IMG/VR virus record: IMGVR_UViG_3300025520_000003
Coordinates: 1-42,711 of that record
Strand: one strand, 5' to 3'
Length of the DNA stretch: 42,711 nt
Source: a virus
In this document: piece by piece, positions 610 through 42,711 of the stretch
Layout: each line of letters begins with the position of its first letter
Position numbering within the stretch: position 1 is the stretch's first letter
Made by a program: the position numbers and the translations under genes
The notes under the pieces: generated by a model
Databases searched by the model: none
What the model was told of the DNA's origin: nothing
What the model saw: only the letters and a program-made list of their open reading frames with translations

Positions 610-2516
610 TATCGTATTCCTCCTCCATTAGTTGTCAGGTTCTTGCTTGCGAGTAATGAGTCATTGTCGAGCGCCTTAAAGACACCCATGCCAGCTTCGT
701 ATGTTTGAGGCTGAATAATCAATGTTTGTATTGTAACACCGCCACCACCGTTAGGTGAACTACCAGCGCCCATATTACGCATTTGTTGTTGGTTGTACAC
801 CGTACCAGATGAATTTGGCACGAATACCTCTTGCTCCATCTCACCAACAACGTATGAACGGCCTGAAGAAACTGGCCCACCAGTTGCACGTTTCTGAACC
901 GCTCCACCCTGAAGGTTTGCAGCACCTCCCTGGATTTGAGCATTAGCACCCTGAATCTTGATAGCAGTATCATTTGCCTGGTTCGTGACCTTTTGGTACA
1001 TGCCCATAATGTCGTTGGTTGTGTACTGCAGTCGTTGATTCAGTTGAATGCTTTGAGTTTGAATAAGACTGTATGCGTCTTTCCATGTAACAACAACTTC
1101 ACTCACAGCGCTTTTAAGTTCCAGGACTCCTGCAACCTGTTGTTGGTGTGCTGGGCCAACGCTTCCAACAATCTTGAGGTTAGCGTCCCAGTTGCTTGTA
1201 GCGATTGATACAGCAGAAGCTAGACCCTCTTGAGCGCCAGTTTGAAGCTCAACGGCGGTCTTGAGATTACCGATTGCAATGTTGTTATCGAGGACTGCAC
1301 CTGTCTGATTAATCAGTGCGCCATAGTAGTCGTCTGTTTTTTGCTTGAGGTTAGCAAGTGCCGCCTCGTACTGAGGTGAATTCTCACCAAACATATCGTG
1401 AGCGAGTCTCAGTTCATCTTCAGCCTGGCGAAGTTGCTGGTTGATTACAGCGGCTTCAGAACGACGAATATTGAGTTGAGCGGTGCTTTCGGTAACTCGT
1501 CCTTGTGCGATTTCCGCCATGCGGCCAGTGTCTTCGATTGCCATTTTAAGGTGGTCGATGACGTTAAAGCTCTCACGGGTTTGGACACCCATTTCTTGAG
1601 CCAGTTCACCATATCGTGACAGCTTTGGAGCTGTATCGTCAAAGGAGTTATTTAAGTCACCAAGGGCAGCGTTAGCTTCAAGCATGCCGTCACGAAGTAC
1701 GGCCATAAAGCTACCGTCACGAACATCACCTTCTTTATTGATACCGACAAGCTGTTTACCTAGCATTCCCAGGTTGTCGGTCAGAGTAGACCATTGACCA
1801 CCAAGAGATTTGCTTTGTTTCTCCATTGTGTTGTAGAACTTGCCACCCTCACCTGTCATAGCTTGGAAGGCTTTTTCAACTTCAGGGAAGCCAATCTCAC
1901 CAGCTTCAACCATCTCGTTGATTTCGGCAGTAGTCTTGTTCAGGGTTTTAGCGAGGTACTCATAGATTGGAATACCACGTTGAGCGAATTGGCGAATGTC
2001 CACTGTAAAGGCACGACCCTGTGTTCGCAGTGTACCCATTAGGTAAGCAAGGTCGCCAATAGGCGCTCCAATAGCCGCTGAGACGTCTCCTAGCTGCTTC
2101 ATAGTGTCAAAGGCGTCTTGACCTTCAAAACCGAACGCAACGAGCTGACGAGTGGCGTTAGCGAGTTCTGGGAACTCAAATGGTGTTTCAGCCGCAAAGT
2201 CTGAAATCTGACGGAGCATAGCACGAGCAGCGTCGGCAGAACCTAGCATGTTCTCTAGGCCAATACGGGTTTGCTCAAAGTCGGCGGCACTTTTAACAGA
2301 GGCCGTGCCAGCAGCTCCAGCAGCAACACCTAAAGCGACAAGCGCAAGTTTACCCTTAGTAGCAACACCAGACAGTAAGTCTGAGCTTCGGCTGGCGTTA
2401 GAGGCTGAATTACTGAGTCCATCAACGGCTTGGGCAGTCTTGTTAATAGCTGACGGGTCGCCTTTGGAGACGACATTGACCTTGATTTCGTTGTTACTAC
2501 TGCCGAGGAGTGCCAT
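609..2516 (-). CDS. tail tape measure protein
   Basis: 635 aa, predicted alpha-helical and Ala/Gln-rich. It has the TP901-type core motif (AAETPFEFPELANATRQLVAFGF). It follows the G/GT chaperone pair and precedes Dit. Confidence 0.85.
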   Translation of the reverse strand: MALLGSSNNEIKVNVVSKGDPSAINKTAQAVDGLSNSASNASRSSDLLSGVATKGKLALVALGVAAGAAGTASVKSAADFEQTRIGLENMLGSADAARAMLRQISDFAAETPFEFPELANATRQLVAFGFEGQDAFDTMKQLGDVSAAIGAPIGDLAYLMGTLRTQGRAFTVDIRQFAQRGIPIYEYLAKTLNKTTAEINEMVEAGEIGFPEVEKAFQAMTGEGGKFYNTMEKQSKSLGGQWSTLTDNLGMLGKQLVGINKEGDVRDGSFMAVLRDGMLEANAALGDLNNSFDDTAPKLSRYGELAQEMGVQTRESFNVIDHLKMAIEDTGRMAEIAQGRVTESTAQLNIRRSEAAVINQQLRQAEDELRLAHDMFGENSPQYEAALANLKQKTDDYYGALINQTGAVLDNNIAIGNLKTAVELQTGAQEGLASAVSIATSNWDANLKIVGSVGPAHQQQVAGVLELKSAVSEVVVTWKDAYSLIQTQSIQLNQRLQYTTNDIMGMYQKVTNQANDTAIKIQGANAQIQGGAANLQGGAVQKRATGGPVSSGRSYVVGEMEQEVFVPNSSGTVYNQQQMRNMGAGSSPNGGGGVTIQTLIIQPQTYEAGMGVFKALDNDSLLASKNLTTNGGGIR

Positions 2517-3122
2517 GTTCCTTTATCGCCTTTTCTTTCTTTGCTTTCGATTCAGCCTTTTTATTTGCTACGTCCGATTTGATGTTGTGGATTTCCAGCT
2601 TCCTAATGATGACATTGAGGGGTAGCCTTAACGTATCAGCGGTCGAGTCACCTGTGATGGAACGGAATTCATCAATCAGGTCAAAGATATAAGCGTCGTA
2701 TGGCTTATTTAAATCTCTTGCTCTGTCACTGGGGTCTTTGGCGTAGTATCTGATGATGTTTTTTTTTGACCATCGGTTACTACTGACTGAAGATTCTTAA
2801 TCTCGTTCTGCTTAATAAGCATGCTGAGGAATGCAAAGTCTTCGGCCTTCAATCGAGCGACGTTAGCGGCGTTGACCTCAACAGGTACACGCTCACCAGC
2901 TTCGTTCAATTCTTCAAGACCCCAATCGGTAATAAGGCTGGCAATGACAGCAAAATTACGATGACTCGGTTCATTATTAAGTTCAGCAAGTGCGACATCG
3001 AGTGCTTCGGCCGCTAGATACTGAGTCTTAATCTCAACCCACGCCTTGTCTTCTTCCTTCTCCTCTTTGAGAGTGGAAGGAAGATAGACTCGTTCAATGT
3101 TCTGCGTAGGTAGGAGTGCCAT
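2497..3122 (-). CDS. tail assembly chaperone GT-like fusion made by a -1 programmed frameshift near 2759-2767
   Basis: The -1 frame is open from the A9 run to a TAG at 2499-2497 (NIIRYYAKDPSDRARDLNKPYDAYIFDLIDEFRS...KEHGTPRQ, about 87 aa). It has no in-frame ATG and fills the otherwise gene-free 190 nt before the TMP start. Confidence 0.65.
2709..3122 (-). CDS. tail assembly chaperone (gpG-like, zero-frame product)
   Basis: 137-aa acidic protein between the tail tube and tape measure genes. It carries an A9 slippery run 50 nt before its stop. Confidence 0.7.
   Translation of the reverse strand: MALLPTQNIERVYLPSTLKEEKEEDKAWVEIKTQYLAAEALDVALAELNNEPSHRNFAVIASLITDWGLEELNEAGERVPVEVNAANVARLKAEDFAFLSMLIKQNEIKNLQSVVTDGQKKTSSDTTPKTPVTEQEI
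2759..2767 (-). promoter_or_regulatory. slippery sequence A AAA AAA (nine A on the coding strand) for the G/GT -1 frameshift
   Basis: Plus strand reads T9 at 2759-2767. The zero frame reads CAA AAA AAA ACA. Confidence 0.65.
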
Positions 3123-4306
3123 TAAATTGTAGCCTCTCCGTTGATGATAACGATTTGCATGCCTTTACCGTCAGTGGTGTCGTTGATAGGGCGGTAGTTC
3201 AGCTCCTCGTATTCGATAGAGCCACTCTCAAGCTGCGGAAGCACTGTTCCGTCTGTCTTGATGTGGTTAAAGACTGCTCGGACTTCGTACTCGTTACCTG
3301 AGCCAGTAAAGTGACGGACAACCAGTGATTGCTTAGTCAAGTTGTTGACCTGTTCAACGTCTTCACCGCCTTCAAAGATTTTCTGAATGCTAATGTTGGC
3401 TGTACCAGTAGTTCGTGGCAATGCAGCTGGGTCAAATCCACCAGAACGCATAGCACCGTCGTCATTCTCAAATGAGTGAATGATGTCGTAGCTTGACCCT
3501 TCTTCAACACGGATTTGTGTTGCGGTAAGAGCGGCCGCTGCGTCATCTGCAAATCGGAACTGGCTTCGTGACCATAGAAGGGTAGGGAGCAGGTCAAAGG
3601 TGATTGTTGATGGTCGAATGTAGATGAAGTCGCCTGCAACTGCCGTGCTGACGTCTTCACTGACGGTTACTTCAGTATCGCTGGCAACTGTATCGACAAT
3701 TGCATTGATGACCGTACCGTTAGCAAGCTGAACAGCAATCAAGTCGCCAACAACGAGGCCATCGGTCGGTGCTGGGTCGTAGAAGCTATCAAGCTCAATT
3801 GTGTATGGGCCAGTGCCAGTAACGGCTGAAATCTTACGGGTGGTAAATGATTTCAAAGCTGAACCAGTAACCTGCCATCGAAGTTCGTTGCCTTCTTTAA
3901 CAAGTGAAATCTGACCAGCCTGGAAGCCGATAAGACGCTTGACTGAGTAGCCGTTTGAAATGTCGTAAGTATAAGGGTTCGGGTCGATTGTCTTTGAAAG
4001 CTCGAAGGTGTGAGTGTATGGCCCTGCACCAGTCGTGCTAACCTTTGTCAGCAATGAGTCAAAGAGACGAGCGCTGGTGTTTGGCTCGGCTGGAACGGTG
4101 ATGTCGCCACGGTGACTGCGCTGACCTTGAAGGACGTCGAAGTTAGCAAACTTCTCGCCGTAGATAGGCATTTGGTCTACAAGGTTGTAGTTGGTATTAA
4201 CTGTCTCAGAATATAGTGGCATGAATACGTCAGGGATAACTGCCGTATCAGCAGCGGTCTGCTTTTTAACGGCAAGATAGCCGAGGTTGCCTAATTTTTC
4301 ACTCAT
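3122..4306 (-). CDS. major tail (tube) protein, assigned by position
   Basis: 394-aa ORF directly upstream of the chaperone pair, with a TAATG overlap to the chaperone. I recognised no specific motif. Confidence 0.5.
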   Translation of the reverse strand: MSEKLGNLGYLAVKKQTAADTAVIPDVFMPLYSETVNTNYNLVDQMPIYGEKFANFDVLQGQRSHRGDITVPAEPNTSARLFDSLLTKVSTTGAGPYTHTFELSKTIDPNPYTYDISNGYSVKRLIGFQAGQISLVKEGNELRWQVTGSALKSFTTRKISAVTGTGPYTIELDSFYDPAPTDGLVVGDLIAVQLANGTVINAIVDTVASDTEVTVSEDVSTAVAGDFIYIRPSTITFDLLPTLLWSRSQFRFADDAAAALTATQIRVEEGSSYDIIHSFENDDGAMRSGGFDPAALPRTTGTANISIQKIFEGGEDVEQVNNLTKQSLVVRHFTGSGNEYEVRAVFNHIKTDGTVLPQLESGSIEYEELNYRPINDTTDGKGMQIVIINGEATI

Positions 4307-4596
4307 TGTTGATTTTGCTCCTGATTAATTGGTTGCGGTTGAACTGGTGCAGTTGACTGAACAGAGTTAGGTTGTGGGGCAGCAGCAACGGTTGCCTGTG
4401 GAGCAACACCGATAACAGCACCGTCGGCAGCGACAGGAGTTGGTGCAGGTTGTGCTTGTGGTTCTGGTTGTGCTGATTCAATAAGTTGGAGACTTGGACT
4501 GTTGAGCTTTACGCTTGAAGTAATCTCTCCGTTGACGGTTTTACCGACACCTGGGATTACGAGTTCTTTACCGTTTTTGGTTTTGTATTTGTACAT
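4303..4596 (-). CDS. hypothetical protein with a Pro/Gln/Ala-rich C-terminal tail
   Basis: 97-aa ORF with a GGAGG SD at 4601-4605 and a 4-nt overlap with the tail tube gene. Confidence 0.6.
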   Translation of the reverse strand: MYKYKTKNGKELVIPGVGKTVNGEITSSVKLNSPSLQLIESAQPEPQAQPAPTPVAADGAVIGVAPQATVAAAPQPNSVQSTAPVQPQPINQEQNQQ

Positions 4597-20941: not shown

Positions 20942-21018
20942 TGGTAGCTGGGGAGGGAATTGCACCCACGTAGACTGGCTTATGAGACCAGCTGGAGAAA
21001 CTAACACTCCACCCTGCT
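20942..21018 (-). tRNA. tRNA-Met(CAT)-like: atypical tRNA-like gene, anticodon CAT (Met/fMet/Ile2)
   Basis: 77 nt with an encoded CCA. The anticodon arm (CTGGT-CTCATAA-GCCAG) is clean. The acceptor stem has an A-A mismatch, the T stem a T-T mismatch, the T loop reads TGCAATT, and the D loop lacks GG. Confidence 0.45.
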
Positions 21019-21033
21019 GAATTAATAATATCA

Positions 21034-21108
21034 TGGTACACACGCAGGGACTCGAACCCCGATTGCTAGAGCCAAAATCTAGTGTCCTACCAGTTAGACG
21101 ACACGTGT
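21034..21108 (-). tRNA. tRNA-Gln(TTG): tRNA-Gln (anticodon TTG)
   Basis: Hand-folded 75-nt cloverleaf. The acceptor stem is ACACGTG/CGTGTGT, the D loop AACTGGTA, the anticodon loop TTTTGGC, the T loop TTCGAGT, and CCA is encoded. Confidence 0.85.
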
Positions 21109-21111
21109 ATG

Positions 21112-21186
21112 TGGCGACCCCACGGGGAATCGAACCCCGACCCACTCGCAGACAACGAGACATACTAGCCGTTATACTATGAGGTC
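21112..21186 (-). tRNA. tRNA-Asp(GTC): tRNA-Asp (anticodon GTC)
   Basis: 75-nt cloverleaf. The acceptor stem is GACCTCA/TGGGGTC, the anticodon loop TTGTCTG (T at position 37, 27:43 T-T), the T loop TTCGATT, and CCA is encoded. Confidence 0.75.
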
Positions 21187-21189
21187 ATT

Positions 21190-21264
21190 TGGCATAGGTT
21201 GAAAGACTCGAACTTTCTCTAACGGTTTTGGAGACCGCCGTGCTACCATTAACACTAAACCCAC
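21190..21264 (-). tRNA. tRNA-Trp(CCA): tRNA-Trp (anticodon CCA)
   Basis: 75-nt cloverleaf. The acceptor stem is GTGGGTT/AACCTAT (with G-U pairs), the anticodon arm GCGGT-CTCCAAA-ACCGT, the T arm GAAAG-TTCGAGT-CTTTC, and CCA is encoded. Confidence 0.85.
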
Positions 21265-21267
21265 ACA

Positions 21268-21342
21268 TGGCCCTAACGGGTGGACTCGAACCACCAACCC
21301 TTCGATTAACAATCGAACGCTCTACCGTTGAGCTACATTAGG
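21268..21342 (-). tRNA. tRNA-Asn(GTT): tRNA-Asn (anticodon GTT)
   Basis: 75-nt cloverleaf. The acceptor stem is CCTAATG/CGTTAGG, the D arm GCTC-AACGGTA-GAGC, the anticodon arm TTCGA-TTGTTAA-TCGAA, the T arm GGTGG-TTCGAGT-CCACC, and CCA is encoded. Confidence 0.9.
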
Positions 21343-21432: not shown

Positions 21433-21450
21433 AAGACCCGTCGGGGTCTT
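21433..21450 (-). terminator. 7-bp GC-rich hairpin with a tetraloop, 10 nt upstream of the first tRNA (terminator or processing signal)
   Basis: AAGACCC-gtcg-GGGTCTT. The minus strand continues ATTTTAATTT. Confidence 0.45.
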
Positions 21451-21714: not shown

Positions 21715-23136
21715 CTATGCAATATCGCCTTCAACCACAAGACTATTTGTACGCTCCTCAAACTTCTGTCCGACCGCCTTTGGAGTTGGAATCCAGGCCA
21801 TTCCCCTGACTCCAAATAGCCACTTAATAGAAGCTACGGCAGGGCCAGCTGTATCGAACAATCCACTGAAGGGTGTCATAACCAAAACTTTGGCGTGTTC
21901 TAAGAGCTTCTGAGGCACGTTCTTTTTGGTATAGCGTAGGTTCTGCCATAAACCAATTTGATTAGCTCCTAGCCACATAGCAAGGCCTGGAATGGCCGCA
22001 ATTGTCAGTGGGTTGAGAGCCTCAGTGCCAATCAGGAACGATGTAAAGTTATAACCGACATAAAACATCAGTAGTACCAGTGAAATGATAGACACGGGCA
22101 GTCCGATGGCGTAGGTGAGGACACGAAGTCGAATCACCAACTGAATCTTAATCCGCTCTCCTAACGATAGCTTCTTCCACTCAGGCAGGCTACGGACATG
22201 AGCCACACCTTGCAGCGCCCCAAGAACCCATCGCTCCCGTTGTTTGTACGCAGCCTTGACCGTGAACGGTGGCTGTTCAATCATCTCGACACCGTGCCAG
22301 CCAAACGACTTCTTTCCAAACTTCAGGAAGAACATCAGGCCAAATACCAGGTCTTCTGCGATGAGCGGTTTGTCACCTAGTGTTCCGATGTCCCACCCAA
22401 TCTTATTTTCGAGTCGTTCCTGCACGACGAGGTTTGACCCGTGAAGATGAAGTGGAGCAGGGTTGGTCATCATCAGGTAGCACTCATGGCAACCAAATGG
22501 CCGACTGGATTCCATCGTCCGACACATGATGTGAGAATCTTCCCACTCTAATGGATAGCTGATTGAACCCTCAGAGATACCCAATGGCTTCTTCAGCAGG
22601 TTACGCACCAGGCGAGCCAGGTTGTCTTCGGTAAAGACAGATTCTTCGTCGTAATGCACGATATACGAATTACGAGGAGTCTGTCGGTGAATCTCAACCA
22701 TGTAGTGCAAGGCACGAGCCTTGAGCTGCGTTCCATTGGGCGTCTGATAGTCAGCAGGCAATATGTAAGTTGTCACGGGGATTGGTGCGTCAGCGAACTC
22801 TCTATCGAGCGCCAGCTTATCTTCCATCTCCTCGGTGATTACCTCGACTGAAACAACGTGTTTAAGAATCGGATATTTGCCAACGGCTTTTATCGCATAC
22901 TCAATCCCACGCCGAACCACTGCTACTGACCCACCTTTGGTCGTAATCTGAATCACGAATAGGATTGGGTGGCGTGACTTGAGCCGTCGCTTTAGCAGTC
23001 GGCCAATCTCTTTGTTAGACACGGCCGTTCGGTCGATATGACCCTTGGAGATGGCGAATGCCGCCACCCCCCAGAAATATAGGTAGGTGAGATTAAGAAT
23101 AATCACCACTACCATAAAGGCGTCGATGGGGTTCAT
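21715..23136 (-). CDS. integral-membrane family-2 glycosyltransferase of the processive synthase type (D, DxD, ED, QxxRW)
   Basis: 473 aa. It has an N-terminal TM helix, a catalytic core with YDEES, LIAEDLVFG and KQRERW motifs, and three or four C-terminal TM helices. Confidence 0.8.
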   Translation of the reverse strand: MNPIDAFMVVVIILNLTYLYFWGVAAFAISKGHIDRTAVSNKEIGRLLKRRLKSRHPILFVIQITTKGGSVAVVRRGIEYAIKAVGKYPILKHVVSVEVITEEMEDKLALDREFADAPIPVTTYILPADYQTPNGTQLKARALHYMVEIHRQTPRNSYIVHYDEESVFTEDNLARLVRNLLKKPLGISEGSISYPLEWEDSHIMCRTMESSRPFGCHECYLMMTNPAPLHLHGSNLVVQERLENKIGWDIGTLGDKPLIAEDLVFGLMFFLKFGKKSFGWHGVEMIEQPPFTVKAAYKQRERWVLGALQGVAHVRSLPEWKKLSLGERIKIQLVIRLRVLTYAIGLPVSIISLVLLMFYVGYNFTSFLIGTEALNPLTIAAIPGLAMWLGANQIGLWQNLRYTKKNVPQKLLEHAKVLVMTPFSGLFDTAGPAVASIKWLFGVRGMAWIPTPKAVGQKFEERTNSLVVEGDIA

Positions 23137-23234
23137 TGCTTCCTGTTGCCTCCACCGAAAGCGTAATAGGCTAGGAATACGATGACCGCAGCCATAACAA
23201 TCCAGAACAGGATTCCACCAAATATTTCACTCAT
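23133..23234 (-). CDS. 33-aa membrane micro-protein translationally coupled to the glycosyltransferase
   Basis: Hand translation gives MSEIFGGILFWIVMAAVIVFLAYYAFGGGNRKQ. It has an AAGGAG SD and ATGA overlaps at both ends. Confidence 0.55.
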   Translation of the reverse strand: MSEIFGGILFWIVMAAVIVFLAYYAFGGGNRKQ

Positions 23235-23392
23235 GATTGACTCTCCTTATTTTTATTAACCAGATACCTGATAACAACTGGCACTGAGAACTTCTTTACG
23301 ATTCCGAGTGGTTGTACCTGCTCTTTATAAATCTTCTTCAGGTCTTCGACAAGCTCTTGGTCTAGACTAGCGGTTTGATATTGTGATGTCAT
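23231..23392 (-). CDS. hypothetical protein (53 aa)
   Basis: The internal ATG at 23392 has an AAGGAG SD and overlaps the YopX stop. Confidence 0.5.
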   Translation of the reverse strand: MTSQYQTASLDQELVEDLKKIYKEQVQPLGIVKKFSVPVVIRYLVNKNKESQS

Positions 23393-36508: not shown

Positions 36509-37912
36509 TTATTCCTTTGTTTTTTTGCCGAGAGTGCTGAACCAGCCAGTTACTAATGCGACAAATTTAATTAGTTTTTCTTTTAAGGTAAGGTTGGCGA
36601 CAATATCATCAATGTCCAGGTCGAACACATCGTCGGTGTCCAGCAAGGTATCAATTGATTGAGTCTTGAACGGAATACCATACCACCAGCCATTTTCAAC
36701 GCTGCGCTGGGTACGATAGTATTTTACCCCGTCTTTTTCAAACTGACCAGCCACGTGAACAGTTTGTCCCTGTCGGAGTGCAATATCTTGCTTCTCACCA
36801 GAGATGTCTTTAATCACTGAGTCAAGGCGAGCTACGAACTCATTAGGAGCGGCCGTGTATGACTCTTTCCATTTGTTTGGGTCTGGTGGCGTGACCTTAA
36901 CAGGGATAGATACAGAACCGTCGTCCTGTTCGACAGGAGGTTCGGGTGTATCAGAAACAGGAGTTTCTGTGACAGGTTGTGGTTCTTGTATCACTGGTGT
37001 TATAGGTTCAGCTGGCTTGACTGACTCAGGTACGGGGACTGGAGCAGGTGAAAGGTCAACCGTGTTTACCCCGTAAGGGTGAGCAGGCGTACCATCAACA
37101 TCGGCATTACCGAAGCTGAAGTCGGTCATGAAGTAGACACCACCAAGAGGGTGTTTATACTTACCGACTGCAACAAATGGCTCACCTTTTTGCAGCGTCT
37201 TGACTTTAGCGACATTCAATTCTTCCCATGTCTTTTTAGACAAATCGAAGGCGTAGGTTGGGTCTTTATTAACAATGAGATTAATAGGGCCGTTCTCAAA
37301 GCGTGTGTAAGGGTTCTCCAGGGGCTTTGGGGCTGGAGTTGGTACTGGAGCAGGTTTTGGCGCTACAACGACTGGAGGGTTGTTTATATAGCCCACAATG
37401 GCGTCTCGTGCTTCCATGATACGTGCAGGACACTGGGTTGCAGTCAGAGATACCTCGTAGTGGCCATAGACGGCGGTTGCGCCATTAAGTTTTTGGTCTT
37501 GAGGTCGCCAGAAAGCAGCAATAACTTTACGGTCGCCATCACGAAGGGTGTCGTTTCGTGCGTCCATAAGATTCTCAATACCGATAGAAGTTTGGTTTAC
37601 TGGCCAGTTACCAGCGTGATAGGTAATCACATTCCATGGGTTGTCAACTAGCTTCACGAGTCGGAATCCTGCGGTACGTTCGGCGTCACTAGCGTCTGGT
37701 GTGCGGCTGTCTACTCGTTGACCAGCAAAGTGGGCCATCGCATAAGAGCGCTGGCCTGTGTACGGGTTGATGAGGCCATTCCAGTTGTTAGGGTTAGAGC
37801 CATATCCACGACTAAAACCGAGGTCGGAGAACCACTGAGCGAGCCAGGCTTTTGACTTTTCTTCCCACGTTGGCGTAACGGCGTGGTGGAGTAATAGCTT
37901 ATCCTTAGTCAT
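36509..37912 (-). CDS. endolysin: N-acetylmuramoyl-L-alanine amidase (Amidase_2/PGRP) plus two SH3-like wall-binding domains
   Basis: 467 aa. The N-terminal amidase carries HH...H...C zinc ligands. Two Pro-rich linkers separate two domains of about 90 aa (GWWYGIP). The C-terminal segment is hydrophobic (LIKFVALVTGWFSTLG). Confidence 0.8.
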   Translation of the reverse strand: MTKDKLLLHHAVTPTWEEKSKAWLAQWFSDLGFSRGYGSNPNNWNGLINPYTGQRSYAMAHFAGQRVDSRTPDASDAERTAGFRLVKLVDNPWNVITYHAGNWPVNQTSIGIENLMDARNDTLRDGDRKVIAAFWRPQDQKLNGATAVYGHYEVSLTATQCPARIMEARDAIVGYINNPPVVVAPKPAPVPTPAPKPLENPYTRFENGPINLIVNKDPTYAFDLSKKTWEELNVAKVKTLQKGEPFVAVGKYKHPLGGVYFMTDFSFGNADVDGTPAHPYGVNTVDLSPAPVPVPESVKPAEPITPVIQEPQPVTETPVSDTPEPPVEQDDGSVSIPVKVTPPDPNKWKESYTAAPNEFVARLDSVIKDISGEKQDIALRQGQTVHVAGQFEKDGVKYYRTQRSVENGWWYGIPFKTQSIDTLLDTDDVFDLDIDDIVANLTLKEKLIKFVALVTGWFSTLGKKTKE

Positions 37913-42419: not shown

Positions 42420-42711
42420 CTACTTCCAATACCTGTAATGAATCAAATCATAGTCCATCGTTCGTGCCGTAAAGTCATCACCGTAATATGCGGTCTGTGC
42501 GCCACGTTCAAACTCAGGAAATGCGCCGCTGAAGTTCTGTTCAGCACCATTCAGAAGAATCTTTCGCTCAACGACGTTAAAGGCCAATACGTCACCGCTG
42601 GCAAAGTCTGCCGTCACCTGTAGTTGTTGGCCAGTGGCGTTGTTTCCAAAGGTCACAGTCTTGTTCGTGCCGTCCGCAATAGAGCTGTATGAGATTGTCA
42701 GGATAGGGAGC
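42420..42711 (-). CDS. distal tail protein (Dit)-like, 3' part (the same gene as 1..609)
   Basis: The stop codon is at 42420-42422. The frame is open to the window end and continuous with 1..609 through the overlap. Confidence 0.7.
   Translation of the reverse strand, partial: LPILTISYSSIADGTNKTVTFGNNATGQQLQVTADFASGDVLAFNVVERKILLNGAEQNFSGAFPEFERGAQTAYYGDDFTARTMDYDLIHYRYWK
42585..42711. repeat. terminal overlap copy 2 (identical to 1..127)
   Basis: Confirmed by direct comparison with nt 1-127. Confidence 0.95.

Follow-up and report, generated by a model that had tools for sequence, protein, structure and literature searches.

Processive family-2 glycosyltransferases (GT2s), such as BcsA/CesA, HAS, CvHAS, Chs, NodC, PgaC/IcaA and the Mycoplasma synthases, hold a GT-A domain between an N-terminal transmembrane (TM) helix and C-terminal TM helices. 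They carry a QxxRW motif on an amphipathic interface helix. Here we analyzed a gene with the same predicted layout, its QxxRW also lying on a predicted interface helix and its motifs following the synthase order KA(G/R), DxD, ED, QxxRW and, by pattern, aromatic-x-x-T-x-K, in a 42,711-nucleotide stretch of viral DNA (IMG/VR record IMGVR_UViG_3300025520_000003, positions 1 to 42,711; hereafter the window). The gene encodes a 473-amino acid (aa) glycosyltransferase (hereafter GT), which is a conserved, phage-borne membrane GT2 with synthase-type architecture and motifs and belongs to an uncharacterized family. Compared with the solved synthases, GT has no sequence or profile match, reaches a TM-score of only about 0.5, has three predicted TM helices and no PilZ or other regulatory domain, and has its gating-loop-like motif in the C-terminal tail, with no more TM helices after it. 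A hydrolase that acts on the polymer made is a common component of synthase systems, BcsZ and PgaB being examples, and these hydrolases as well as the PgaD/IcaD partners have parallels in cellular relatives of GT, namely a fusion to a GH113 domain and a two-helix partner. The PgaCD complex provides the analogy for a glycosyltransferase acting with a small membrane partner (10.1101/2021.10.13.464265).

Phage-borne GT2s that alter host surface glycans include those of the GtrABC systems (P22/SfX-type phages) and the prophage-encoded TarP of S. aureus. The changes they make affect phage adsorption and immunity, and the logic proposed here for GT is the same. GtrB is a PF00535 polyprenyl-phosphate glycosyltransferase that needs GtrA and the GT-C protein GtrC, whereas GT has no Gtr partner genes. 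TarP is a soluble trimeric GT-A enzyme, and both TarP and GtrB lack the QxxRW motif and the interface helices, unlike GT. To our knowledge, all phage enzymes remodelling surface glycans are either soluble GT-A proteins or Gtr-type lipid-carrier systems. Chloroviruses encode membrane GT2 synthases for hyaluronan or chitin, which are expressed early and coat the infected cell. These are the top matches of GT in a viral structure library, but they come from viruses of eukaryotic algae and belong to different sequence families. Finally, egghead of Drosophila and BRE-3 of C. elegans, beta-1,4-mannosyltransferases of glycosphingolipid synthesis, are the sole characterized proteins whose name an automated pipeline transfers to the GT family, a likeness at the level of names. 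Egghead is a GT2 of about 457 aa, with one TM helix at its N-terminus and further TM helices at its C-terminus, that uses a sugar acceptor on a lipid. It differs as an animal Golgi/ER enzyme that makes one transfer onto glucosylceramide, and we know of no glucosylceramide synthesis in the bacterial hosts of the GT family.

Family assignment, motifs and predicted topology

A sequence-only reading of the window had placed the 473-aa protein among the synthase-type GT2s from its motifs and had proposed a Pfam search. Indeed, GT matched PF13632 (Glyco_trans_2_3) over residues 158-362 with 58.6 bits, against a gathering cut-off of 27 (E = 1e-15), and its 266 homologues are conserved over the full length, with PF13632 in every homologue listed. 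The Pfam score and these homologues together put the signal beyond chance. That reading also held GT to be unlike the usual phage glycosyltransferases, and this agrees with our searches: tblastn against 50,697 GenBank phage genomes returned no homologue, PHROGs gave no match, and phage protein structures fitted the GT-A core only. GT has no detectable counterpart among sequenced cultured phages. In NCBIfam, the only matches were weak ones to PRK14716 and PRK15489 ("glycosyl transferase family protein"; E = 0.1-0.2, far under the cut-off), which we take to be NfrB-like. Among phage copies, dN ranged from 0.16 to 0.37, dS being saturated so that no dN/dS ratio is given, and all catalytic residues were kept. 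From this retention and the dN values, we conclude that GT is an accessory gene maintained in these phages, whose hosts are very probably Actinomycetota. The gene is the last one in a block of small genes and is followed by a terminator-like hairpin and then by five tRNA genes, 373 nt downstream on the same strand, as expected from its earlier placement at the close of the early operon. We infer that GT is expressed early in infection.

Motif conservation was read from an alignment of 36 sequences with 39-79% identity. The DxD, ED and QxxRW motifs pointed out from the sequence were recovered as D163-E164-E165 (in HYDEES), E261-D262 (in AEDLVFG) and QRxRW, and these residues were invariant in this set, E301 within QRERW being variable (Table 1). 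The order KAR, DEE, ED, QRxRW and WxPTPK is colinear with KAG, DxD, TED, QxxRW and FxVTxK of BcsA. The UDP-sugar motifs described for synthases include KAG (PMC11658790), and KAR is a candidate counterpart on the basis of order and spacing rather than alignment. The counterpart of the first "D/DD" motif of the synthases is uncertain, possibly T101-E102. In BcsA/CesA, the FxVTxK gating loop comes after interface helix IF3; its Phe stacks against the QxxRW arginine, and F, T and K are each required, while HAS and Chs carry WGTR/KG in its place (PMC9934533). In GT, WxPTPK comes after the amphipathic helix 407-440, at the C-terminus, and shares the aromatic-x-x-T-x-K spacing of FxVTxK by pattern only. 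Pattern and position suggest that it may be the gating-loop counterpart. Further invariant blocks were specific to the family (ITT(K/R)G, RPxGCxEC, HLHGSN, GWD, FGWH and EQPP). An ED catalytic base and a QxxRW motif typify enzymes whose acceptor is a sugar hydroxyl rather than a phosphate, and their invariance thus points to a sugar-hydroxyl acceptor.

The AlphaFold (AF2) model of GT obtained from that alignment (pLDDT 90.2, pTM 0.90) has an alternating strand/helix, Rossmann-like GT-A core at residues 59-290, and all its fold matches were GT-A enzymes. The fold comparison suggested earlier for GT alone led to the hyaluronan and chitin synthases: the top PDB folds were those of Chlorella-virus and Xenopus hyaluronan synthases, yeast Chs1 and the Phytophthora chitin synthase PsChs1 (E ~1e-8, probability 1.00, TMq 0.44-0.54, 11-14% identity). 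The soluble wall-teichoic-acid glycosyltransferases TarS, TarP and RmlT fitted the GT-A core alone (TMq 0.31-0.34; TarP, 0.31), and the Pyrobaculum membrane mannosyltransferase PcManGT ranked 13 among the PDB fold matches. Among the predicted viral structures of BFVD, giant-virus GT2s were the best matches and phage proteins covered the GT-A core only (TMq <=0.33). No bacteriophage counterpart of the giant-virus synthases was found in BFVD or in the GenBank phages.

Topology was predicted from Kyte-Doolittle (KD) hydropathy, hydrophobic moment and the positive-inside rule applied to the AF2 helices. The prediction comprises three TM helices, a cytoplasmic GT-A domain, two interface-type amphipathic helices and a cytoplasmic WIPTPK tail. 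The N-terminal TM helix of the sequence-only reading was clear in both model and hydropathy, and its "three or four C-terminal TM helices" turned out to be an overcount, as helices 337-368 and 376-400 alone look membrane-spanning and helix 407-440, preceded by the K/R-rich cytoplasmic loop RYTKKNVP, is amphipathic. The QRERW sequence lies on an amphipathic, interface-type helix (residues 293-314; mean KD -0.09, moment 1.15) directly before TM2.

Table 1. Features of the GT locus in the window and of related loci (ORF, open reading frame; MAG, metagenome-assembled genome).
Feature	Position	Strand	Remarks
GT, membrane-integrated family-2 glycosyltransferase (Glyco_trans_2_3), 473 aa	21715..23136	-	Supported by ORF, Pfam, AF2 model and homologues
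N-terminal TM helix, residues 3-30	23047..23130	-	Predicted, N-terminus outside; mean KD 1.78; then a loop with 9 Lys/Arg (cytoplasmic)
K139-A140-R141	22714..22722	-	Invariant; candidate counterpart of the BcsA nucleotide-binding KAG
D163-E164-E165 (HYDEES)	22642..22650	-	DxD-type metal/nucleotide-sugar motif; invariant in 36; end of strand 157-163
E261-D262 (AEDLVFG)	22351..22356	-	Counterpart of the TED/ED catalytic base; invariant; start of helix 261-273
Q299-R300-E301-R302-W303	22228..22242	-	QxxRW acceptor-binding motif; Q, R, R and W invariant; helix 293-314
Two C-terminal TM helices, ~337-368 and 376-400	21937..22128	-	Predicted; joined by a short uncharged outside loop
Amphipathic helix 407-440	21817..21918	-	Candidate third interface helix (IF3-like); mean KD 0.59, moment 0.94; no clear TM
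W448-I-P-T451-P452-K453	21778..21795	-	C-terminal tail motif, candidate gating loop; W448/T451/K453 invariant, P452 at least 90%
33-aa single-TM ORF (MSEIFGGILFWIVMAAVIVFLAYYAFGGGNRKQ)	23133..23234	-	ATGA overlap on both sides; maximum KD 2.74 (17-residue window)
53-aa soluble ORF	23231..23392	-	From ATG at 23392 (72 aa from an upstream TTG); ATGA overlap with the 33-aa ORF
Two-helix partner (example)	L055 9383-9739	+	Also L048, L045, L059, L066, L067, L047, L053, L110, L134, L168
Sister-clade GT	L007/L008/L009, 8001-9380 or 8001-9410		Three bacterial orders
Terminator-like hairpin between GT and tRNAs	21433..21450	-	7-bp stem, 4 GC pairs, T-rich tail
Five tRNA genes: Asn, Trp, Asp, Gln, Met	20942..21342	-	Context, outside the GT module

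Cellular relatives, membrane partners and fusions

An exhaustive profile search of 1.84 billion representative proteins gave 868 matches with E <= 1e-3, of which 99 had E <= 1e-30; the GT family is small, compact, distinct and uncharacterized. Its cellular members belong to Actinomycetota (Micrococcales, Mycobacteriales, Propionibacteriales and Acidimicrobiales), Chloroflexota (Ktedonobacteria) and a few other groups. In a neighbour-joining tree (without support values), approximately 45 phage-type clusters (90% identity), 55-79% identical to the window protein, formed one clade. Its sister was an actinobacterial group at about 50% identity, and the other cellular members made up the remaining half of the tree. 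The phage-borne GTs are a single diverse clade carried by siphovirus-type phages, and the family is native to Actinomycetota and Chloroflexota. An apparent cluster of tandem GT paralogues from all-versus-all neighbour clustering was rejected as a single-linkage artefact, each locus having one GT. No conserved export or outer machinery was found near the cellular GTs.

The ORF adjoining cellular GTs was often a small hairpin of two TM helices, the first with Y-[IL]-x-[IV]-P-L and the second ending in E-x-x-[LI]-...-[IL]-L-K-T. A hidden Markov model (HMM) built on its 62-column core matched 113 of the 166 GT loci, all of them cellular, always on the GT strand and within 700 nt. The partner lay downstream of GT in 65 loci and upstream in 35. 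Thirteen matches located "inside" the GT frame were not accepted as fusions, since stop-to-stop frames run on in high-GC DNA; we accept as fusions P0121 and P0219 alone, two called proteins in which GT and partner are naturally joined. The two-helix partner has no Pfam family. The idea of a synthase with a small membrane protein, put forward for the window, is right for the cellular family, by way of this two-helix partner rather than the 33-aa peptide.

Other clues came from the domains joined to GT. P0121 (963 aa) contains, in order, GT, the partner hairpin, a further hydrophobic segment and a GH113 domain, and by our reading of the linker sequence GH113 would lie outside the membrane, after an extra predicted TM segment. 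GH113 is a beta-1,4-mannanase family (PMC9032380). Further fusions were to a PMT/PMT_2 GT-C (one member), to sortase and to N-terminal IPT/TIG repeats (P0130, P0131/P0102, P0123/P0126-P0129). In Ktedonobacteria, PIG-V and PMT_2 mannosyltransferase genes were found a few genes from GT. Furthermore, many members bear the automated, KEGG-derived JGI label "egghead protein" or "beta-1,4-mannosyltransferase". In the literature, we found neither a link between the bacterial homologues and egghead nor relevant phage synthase-type glycosyltransferases. The GH113, PMT_2, sortase and TIG fusions, the PIG-V and PMT_2 neighbours and the JGI label suggest that the product of the family may be surface-directed and possibly mannose-containing. 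The fusions suggest an unknown cell-surface glycan pathway, possibly of mannan type, in Actinomycetota and Chloroflexota.

In the sister clade, near-identical 490-aa GTs were present in Gulosibacter (L007), in a Coriobacteriaceae MAG (L008) and in Propionibacterium cyclohexanicum (L009), within a shared block coding for a YgjP-like peptidase, a type I HsdR, HsdM, GT and an anchored 226-aa protein, in that order. A large serine recombinase follows the block in L007. The block looks like a horizontally moving defence-type island, and this context fits a role of GT in phage-host conflict at the cell surface.

Proposed envelope remodelling and alternative readings

On balance, we lean towards the view that GT is an active, membrane-integrated, inverting family-2 enzyme of the synthase class that remodels the envelope glycans of the infected cell. 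The phage would make GT early, and GT would insert into the host membrane and use a host nucleotide sugar, with mannose as the best guess. The sugar would be passed in beta linkage, probably repeatedly, to an acceptor sugar on the inner side of the membrane, and the product would be a glycan or lipid-anchored glycan reaching the cell surface. The envelope glycans of the infected cell would then be altered or masked and competing phages excluded. Such masking would also prevent progeny phages from attaching to debris or to cells already infected.

Several observations weigh against this view. Searches of PDB sequences with phmmer, a full-length profile and a catalytic-domain profile returned spurious matches only; the tie to the synthases is therefore drawn from Pfam and the fold, and the family is remote from every solved synthase. 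The fold matches themselves have a high rmsd (8-17 A) at a TM-score of about 0.5. The three predicted TM helices are fewer than in the channels of BcsA, HAS or Chs. In favour of the view, the Mycoplasma galactan and glucofuranan synthases are modelled with three TM and three interface helices (PMC11658790), and a three-TM synthase could by analogy export a polymer. The two-helix partner is absent from every phage-type locus and also from the sister actinobacterial group, so that the phage enzyme on its own might be unable to form a channel. The pointers to mannose stem from distant members (~40% identical to the phage GT) and from an automated label. PADLOC gave no match for GT, the island-borne P0046, P0100, or the 33-aa or 53-aa ORF, so that the exclusion role is argued by analogy with phage envelope-modifying enzymes. 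Finally, an identical GT protein is binned in a "Flavobacteriales" MAG, the actinobacterial host being assigned by inference only.

More tentatively, GT might be the first bacteriophage-encoded processive exopolysaccharide synthase. One early gene would then make and export a beta-linked homopolymer, possibly resembling a beta-1,4-mannan, as a coat around the infected actinobacterial cell, with the two-helix partner of the cellular enzymes dispensed with and the unrelated 33-aa helix perhaps in its place.

A possible alternative, about which we are doubtful, is that GT is a non-processive, egghead-like beta-glycosyltransferase, in line with the lipid glycosyltransferase that the sequence-only reading had kept as an alternative. 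It would attach just one hexose to a glycolipid of the membrane or to a lipoglycan anchor (e.g., a glycosyl-diacylglycerol or a lipomannan precursor) at the inner leaflet, for the host to flip or extend, and the outcome would be the same altered surface glycoconjugate without polymer or channel. The JGI names carried by many members are in line with this alternative, and so are the prediction of just three TM helices, the cellular neighbourhoods devoid of conserved export or outer machinery, and the fused or nearby GT-C mannosyltransferases, which would be able to extend a lipid-linked primer. Egghead/BRE-3 acts in a stepwise glycosphingolipid pathway (PMC10337751), and QxxRW alone is not diagnostic of processivity. 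However, the invariant, gating-loop-like WxPTPK after an IF3-like helix argues for a synthase, as do the GH113 mannanase domain, apparently extracellular, and the TIG repeats to which members of the family are fused, such fusions being typical of polymer synthase systems. The best folds are also those of polymer synthases, although the PDB library holds no egghead structure.

The sequence-only reading had further coupled GT to the 33-aa ORF upstream, which would make this micro-protein an obligatory, co-translated synthase subunit, like IcaD/PgaD with IcaA/PgaC. We consider this unlikely. The ORF sizes and both ATGA junctions (53-aa/33-aa and 33-aa/GT) were as described. The 33-aa ORF, which is strongly hydrophobic, has a good Shine-Dalgarno sequence (AAGGAG at 23248-23243, 8-nt spacer), while that of GT (GGAGG) lies 12 nt from the ATG, a poor spacing. 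Together with the ATGA overlap, this poor spacing fits translational coupling of GT to the 33-aa ORF. The precedent of PgaCD (10.1101/2021.10.13.464265) and the small membrane partner that cellular relatives need or keep are also consistent with a subunit. At another phage-type locus (L171, 4912-5004, + strand; GT 62% identical), the start of GT shares an ATGA with an independent 30-aa single-TM ORF (MKRLVYLTAILLLPLSIAVVAIELIKKRNP), and a 118-aa membrane ORF lies near GT in L005. On the other hand, no homologue of the 33-aa ORF was found beside GT at any of about 14 phage-type loci, and the proposed coupling to the micro-protein is not supported. In the closest relative, L002 (GT 78% identical), GT begins right next to an unrelated 59-aa soluble ORF and there is no membrane micro-ORF, and most other phage loci lack such an ORF as well. 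Early regions of phages often contain small TM ORFs. Near GT at phage-type loci, small membrane ORFs are frequent but mutually unrelated, and further ones stand one to three genes away. Indeed, the 30-aa ORF has no sequence similarity to the 33-aa ORF, and no similarity was detectable among the 33-, 30- and 118-aa ORFs or between them and the cellular partner HMM. The 33-aa ORF had no Pfam or PHROG family, and the 53-aa ORF had no Pfam match and no BLAST-detectable homologue at related loci. BLAST gave no support to the 59-aa ORF of L002 as a homologue of the 53-aa ORF, and a 49-aa "GIVFWII" ORF of L088, with E = 2.5-3.7 against a tiny database, was not accepted as related to the 33-aa ORF. 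The 33-aa ORF probably does encode a small membrane protein that is coupled to GT in translation, and its co-translation with GT in the window phage is plausible. By these comparisons, it appears to be an accessory specific to that phage and not a defining subunit.

It is improbable that GT is a polyprenyl-phosphate-sugar synthase (GtrB/DPMS/ArnC-like) charging undecaprenyl or decaprenyl phosphate so that a host GT-C decorates wall polymers outside, as in Gtr serotype conversion. The member fused to a PMT/PMT_2 GT-C, the PMT_2/PIG-V genes near GT in Ktedonobacteria and the presence of PcManGT among the fold matches speak for it, but the invariant ED and QxxRW point to a sugar hydroxyl and not to a phosphate, and GT matches PF13632 with no PF00535 match. 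In agreement with the earlier view that GT is not a characterized serotype-conversion enzyme, the genes called genome-wide include no GtrA-type flippase, GtrC or other GT-C, and no nucleoside diphosphate-sugar enzymes. A role in virion or DNA glycosylation was set aside given the membrane anchor, the sugar-acceptor motif and the location in an early rather than a structural block.

The phage genome, its relatives and its probable host

Positions 1-127 and 42585-42711 of the window are an exact direct repeat of 127 bp (assembler k-mer overlap). The window is therefore a complete phage genome, rather than a prophage, which assembles as a circle of 42,584 bp, and the identical genome was recovered independently in Logan and ENA contigs. 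No integrase was present among the genes called genome-wide. Head and packaging genes code for a terminase, a Mu-like portal and a Mu-F-like head protein, and tail genes for a tape measure, an SPP1-type Dit, a 1216-aa tail protein and a baseplate Gp10_C protein. Replication-type genes include RecT/YqaJ, Sipho_Gp157, YopX and a DnaD-like organiser. A DNA-level search of the region against the 50,697 GenBank phage records gave zero matches. The portal and terminase were approximately 30% identical to their best matches, from Microbacterium, Arthrobacter, Rathayibacter and Streptomyces phages. Among the relatives, one carries Lsr2 and one a CHAP+CW_7 endolysin directly after GT. Because of these best matches and of the Lsr2 and CHAP+CW_7 genes, the host of the window phage is probably actinobacterial. 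Flavobacteriales was discarded as a host and attributed to MAG binning, as the genome closes on itself through the 127-bp overlap.

The sole endolysin candidate of the window (36509-37912, - strand; 467 aa) matched Amidase_2 with 21.6 bits, under the curated cut-off of 26. It had no tblastn match in the 50,697 phage genomes and no PHROG, and is of no use for host inference. These results indicate that the lysis module of the window phage is probably also novel. Spacers between the five tRNA genes are 3-15 nt long. Among the relatives, only L002 has tRNAs after GT, retaining just Asn and Gln at the same place. The number of terminator-like sites in the region was not above shuffle expectation.

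GTs of the phage clade were found on several phage-type contigs of 36-53 kb with differing gene neighbourhoods, some relatives sharing the RecT/YqaJ/DUF559 layout of the window, with a GC content of 39-47%. In L089 (7411-9987 and 12021-12923), GT follows an RNA-repair cassette with RlaP, a T4-type RNA ligase 1 and a PNKP-like kinase/phosphatase, and an IS1595-family transposase gene lies just downstream. L088, a 40-kb GT-bearing phage contig, encodes a full-length Cpn60/GroEL-type chaperonin of 538 aa (1118-2734, - strand). On the 105-kb contig L173, a TraG/TrwB-like 751-aa protein and Lsr2 (1366-4497) precede GT and terminase genes follow it; the contig represents a large actinophage or, alternatively, a phage-plasmid-like element. 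The phage contig L006/L004 (NZ_JAALEG010000062.1, 38,618 bp; IMGVR_UViG_2576861707_000001), with a GT 67% identical to that of the window and a GC content of 0.565, was assembled with the genome of Rhodococcus aetherivorans DSM 44752, a strain with a chromosome of much higher GC content. It may be an extrachromosomal or carrier-state phage of that culture and a lead to a cultivable host.

A glycosyltransferase of synthase architecture kept by a whole clade of uncultured, probably actinobacterial phages would represent a new, one-gene way of re-coating the host, with a bearing on superinfection exclusion, receptor masking and host-range prediction. If GT were a processive exopolysaccharide synthase, it would be the bacterial-virus counterpart of the chlorovirus hyaluronan and chitin synthases. 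GT is small and self-contained, which makes heterologous testing easy, and its family offers an entry point to an unknown surface-glycan pathway of Gram-positive soil and freshwater bacteria.

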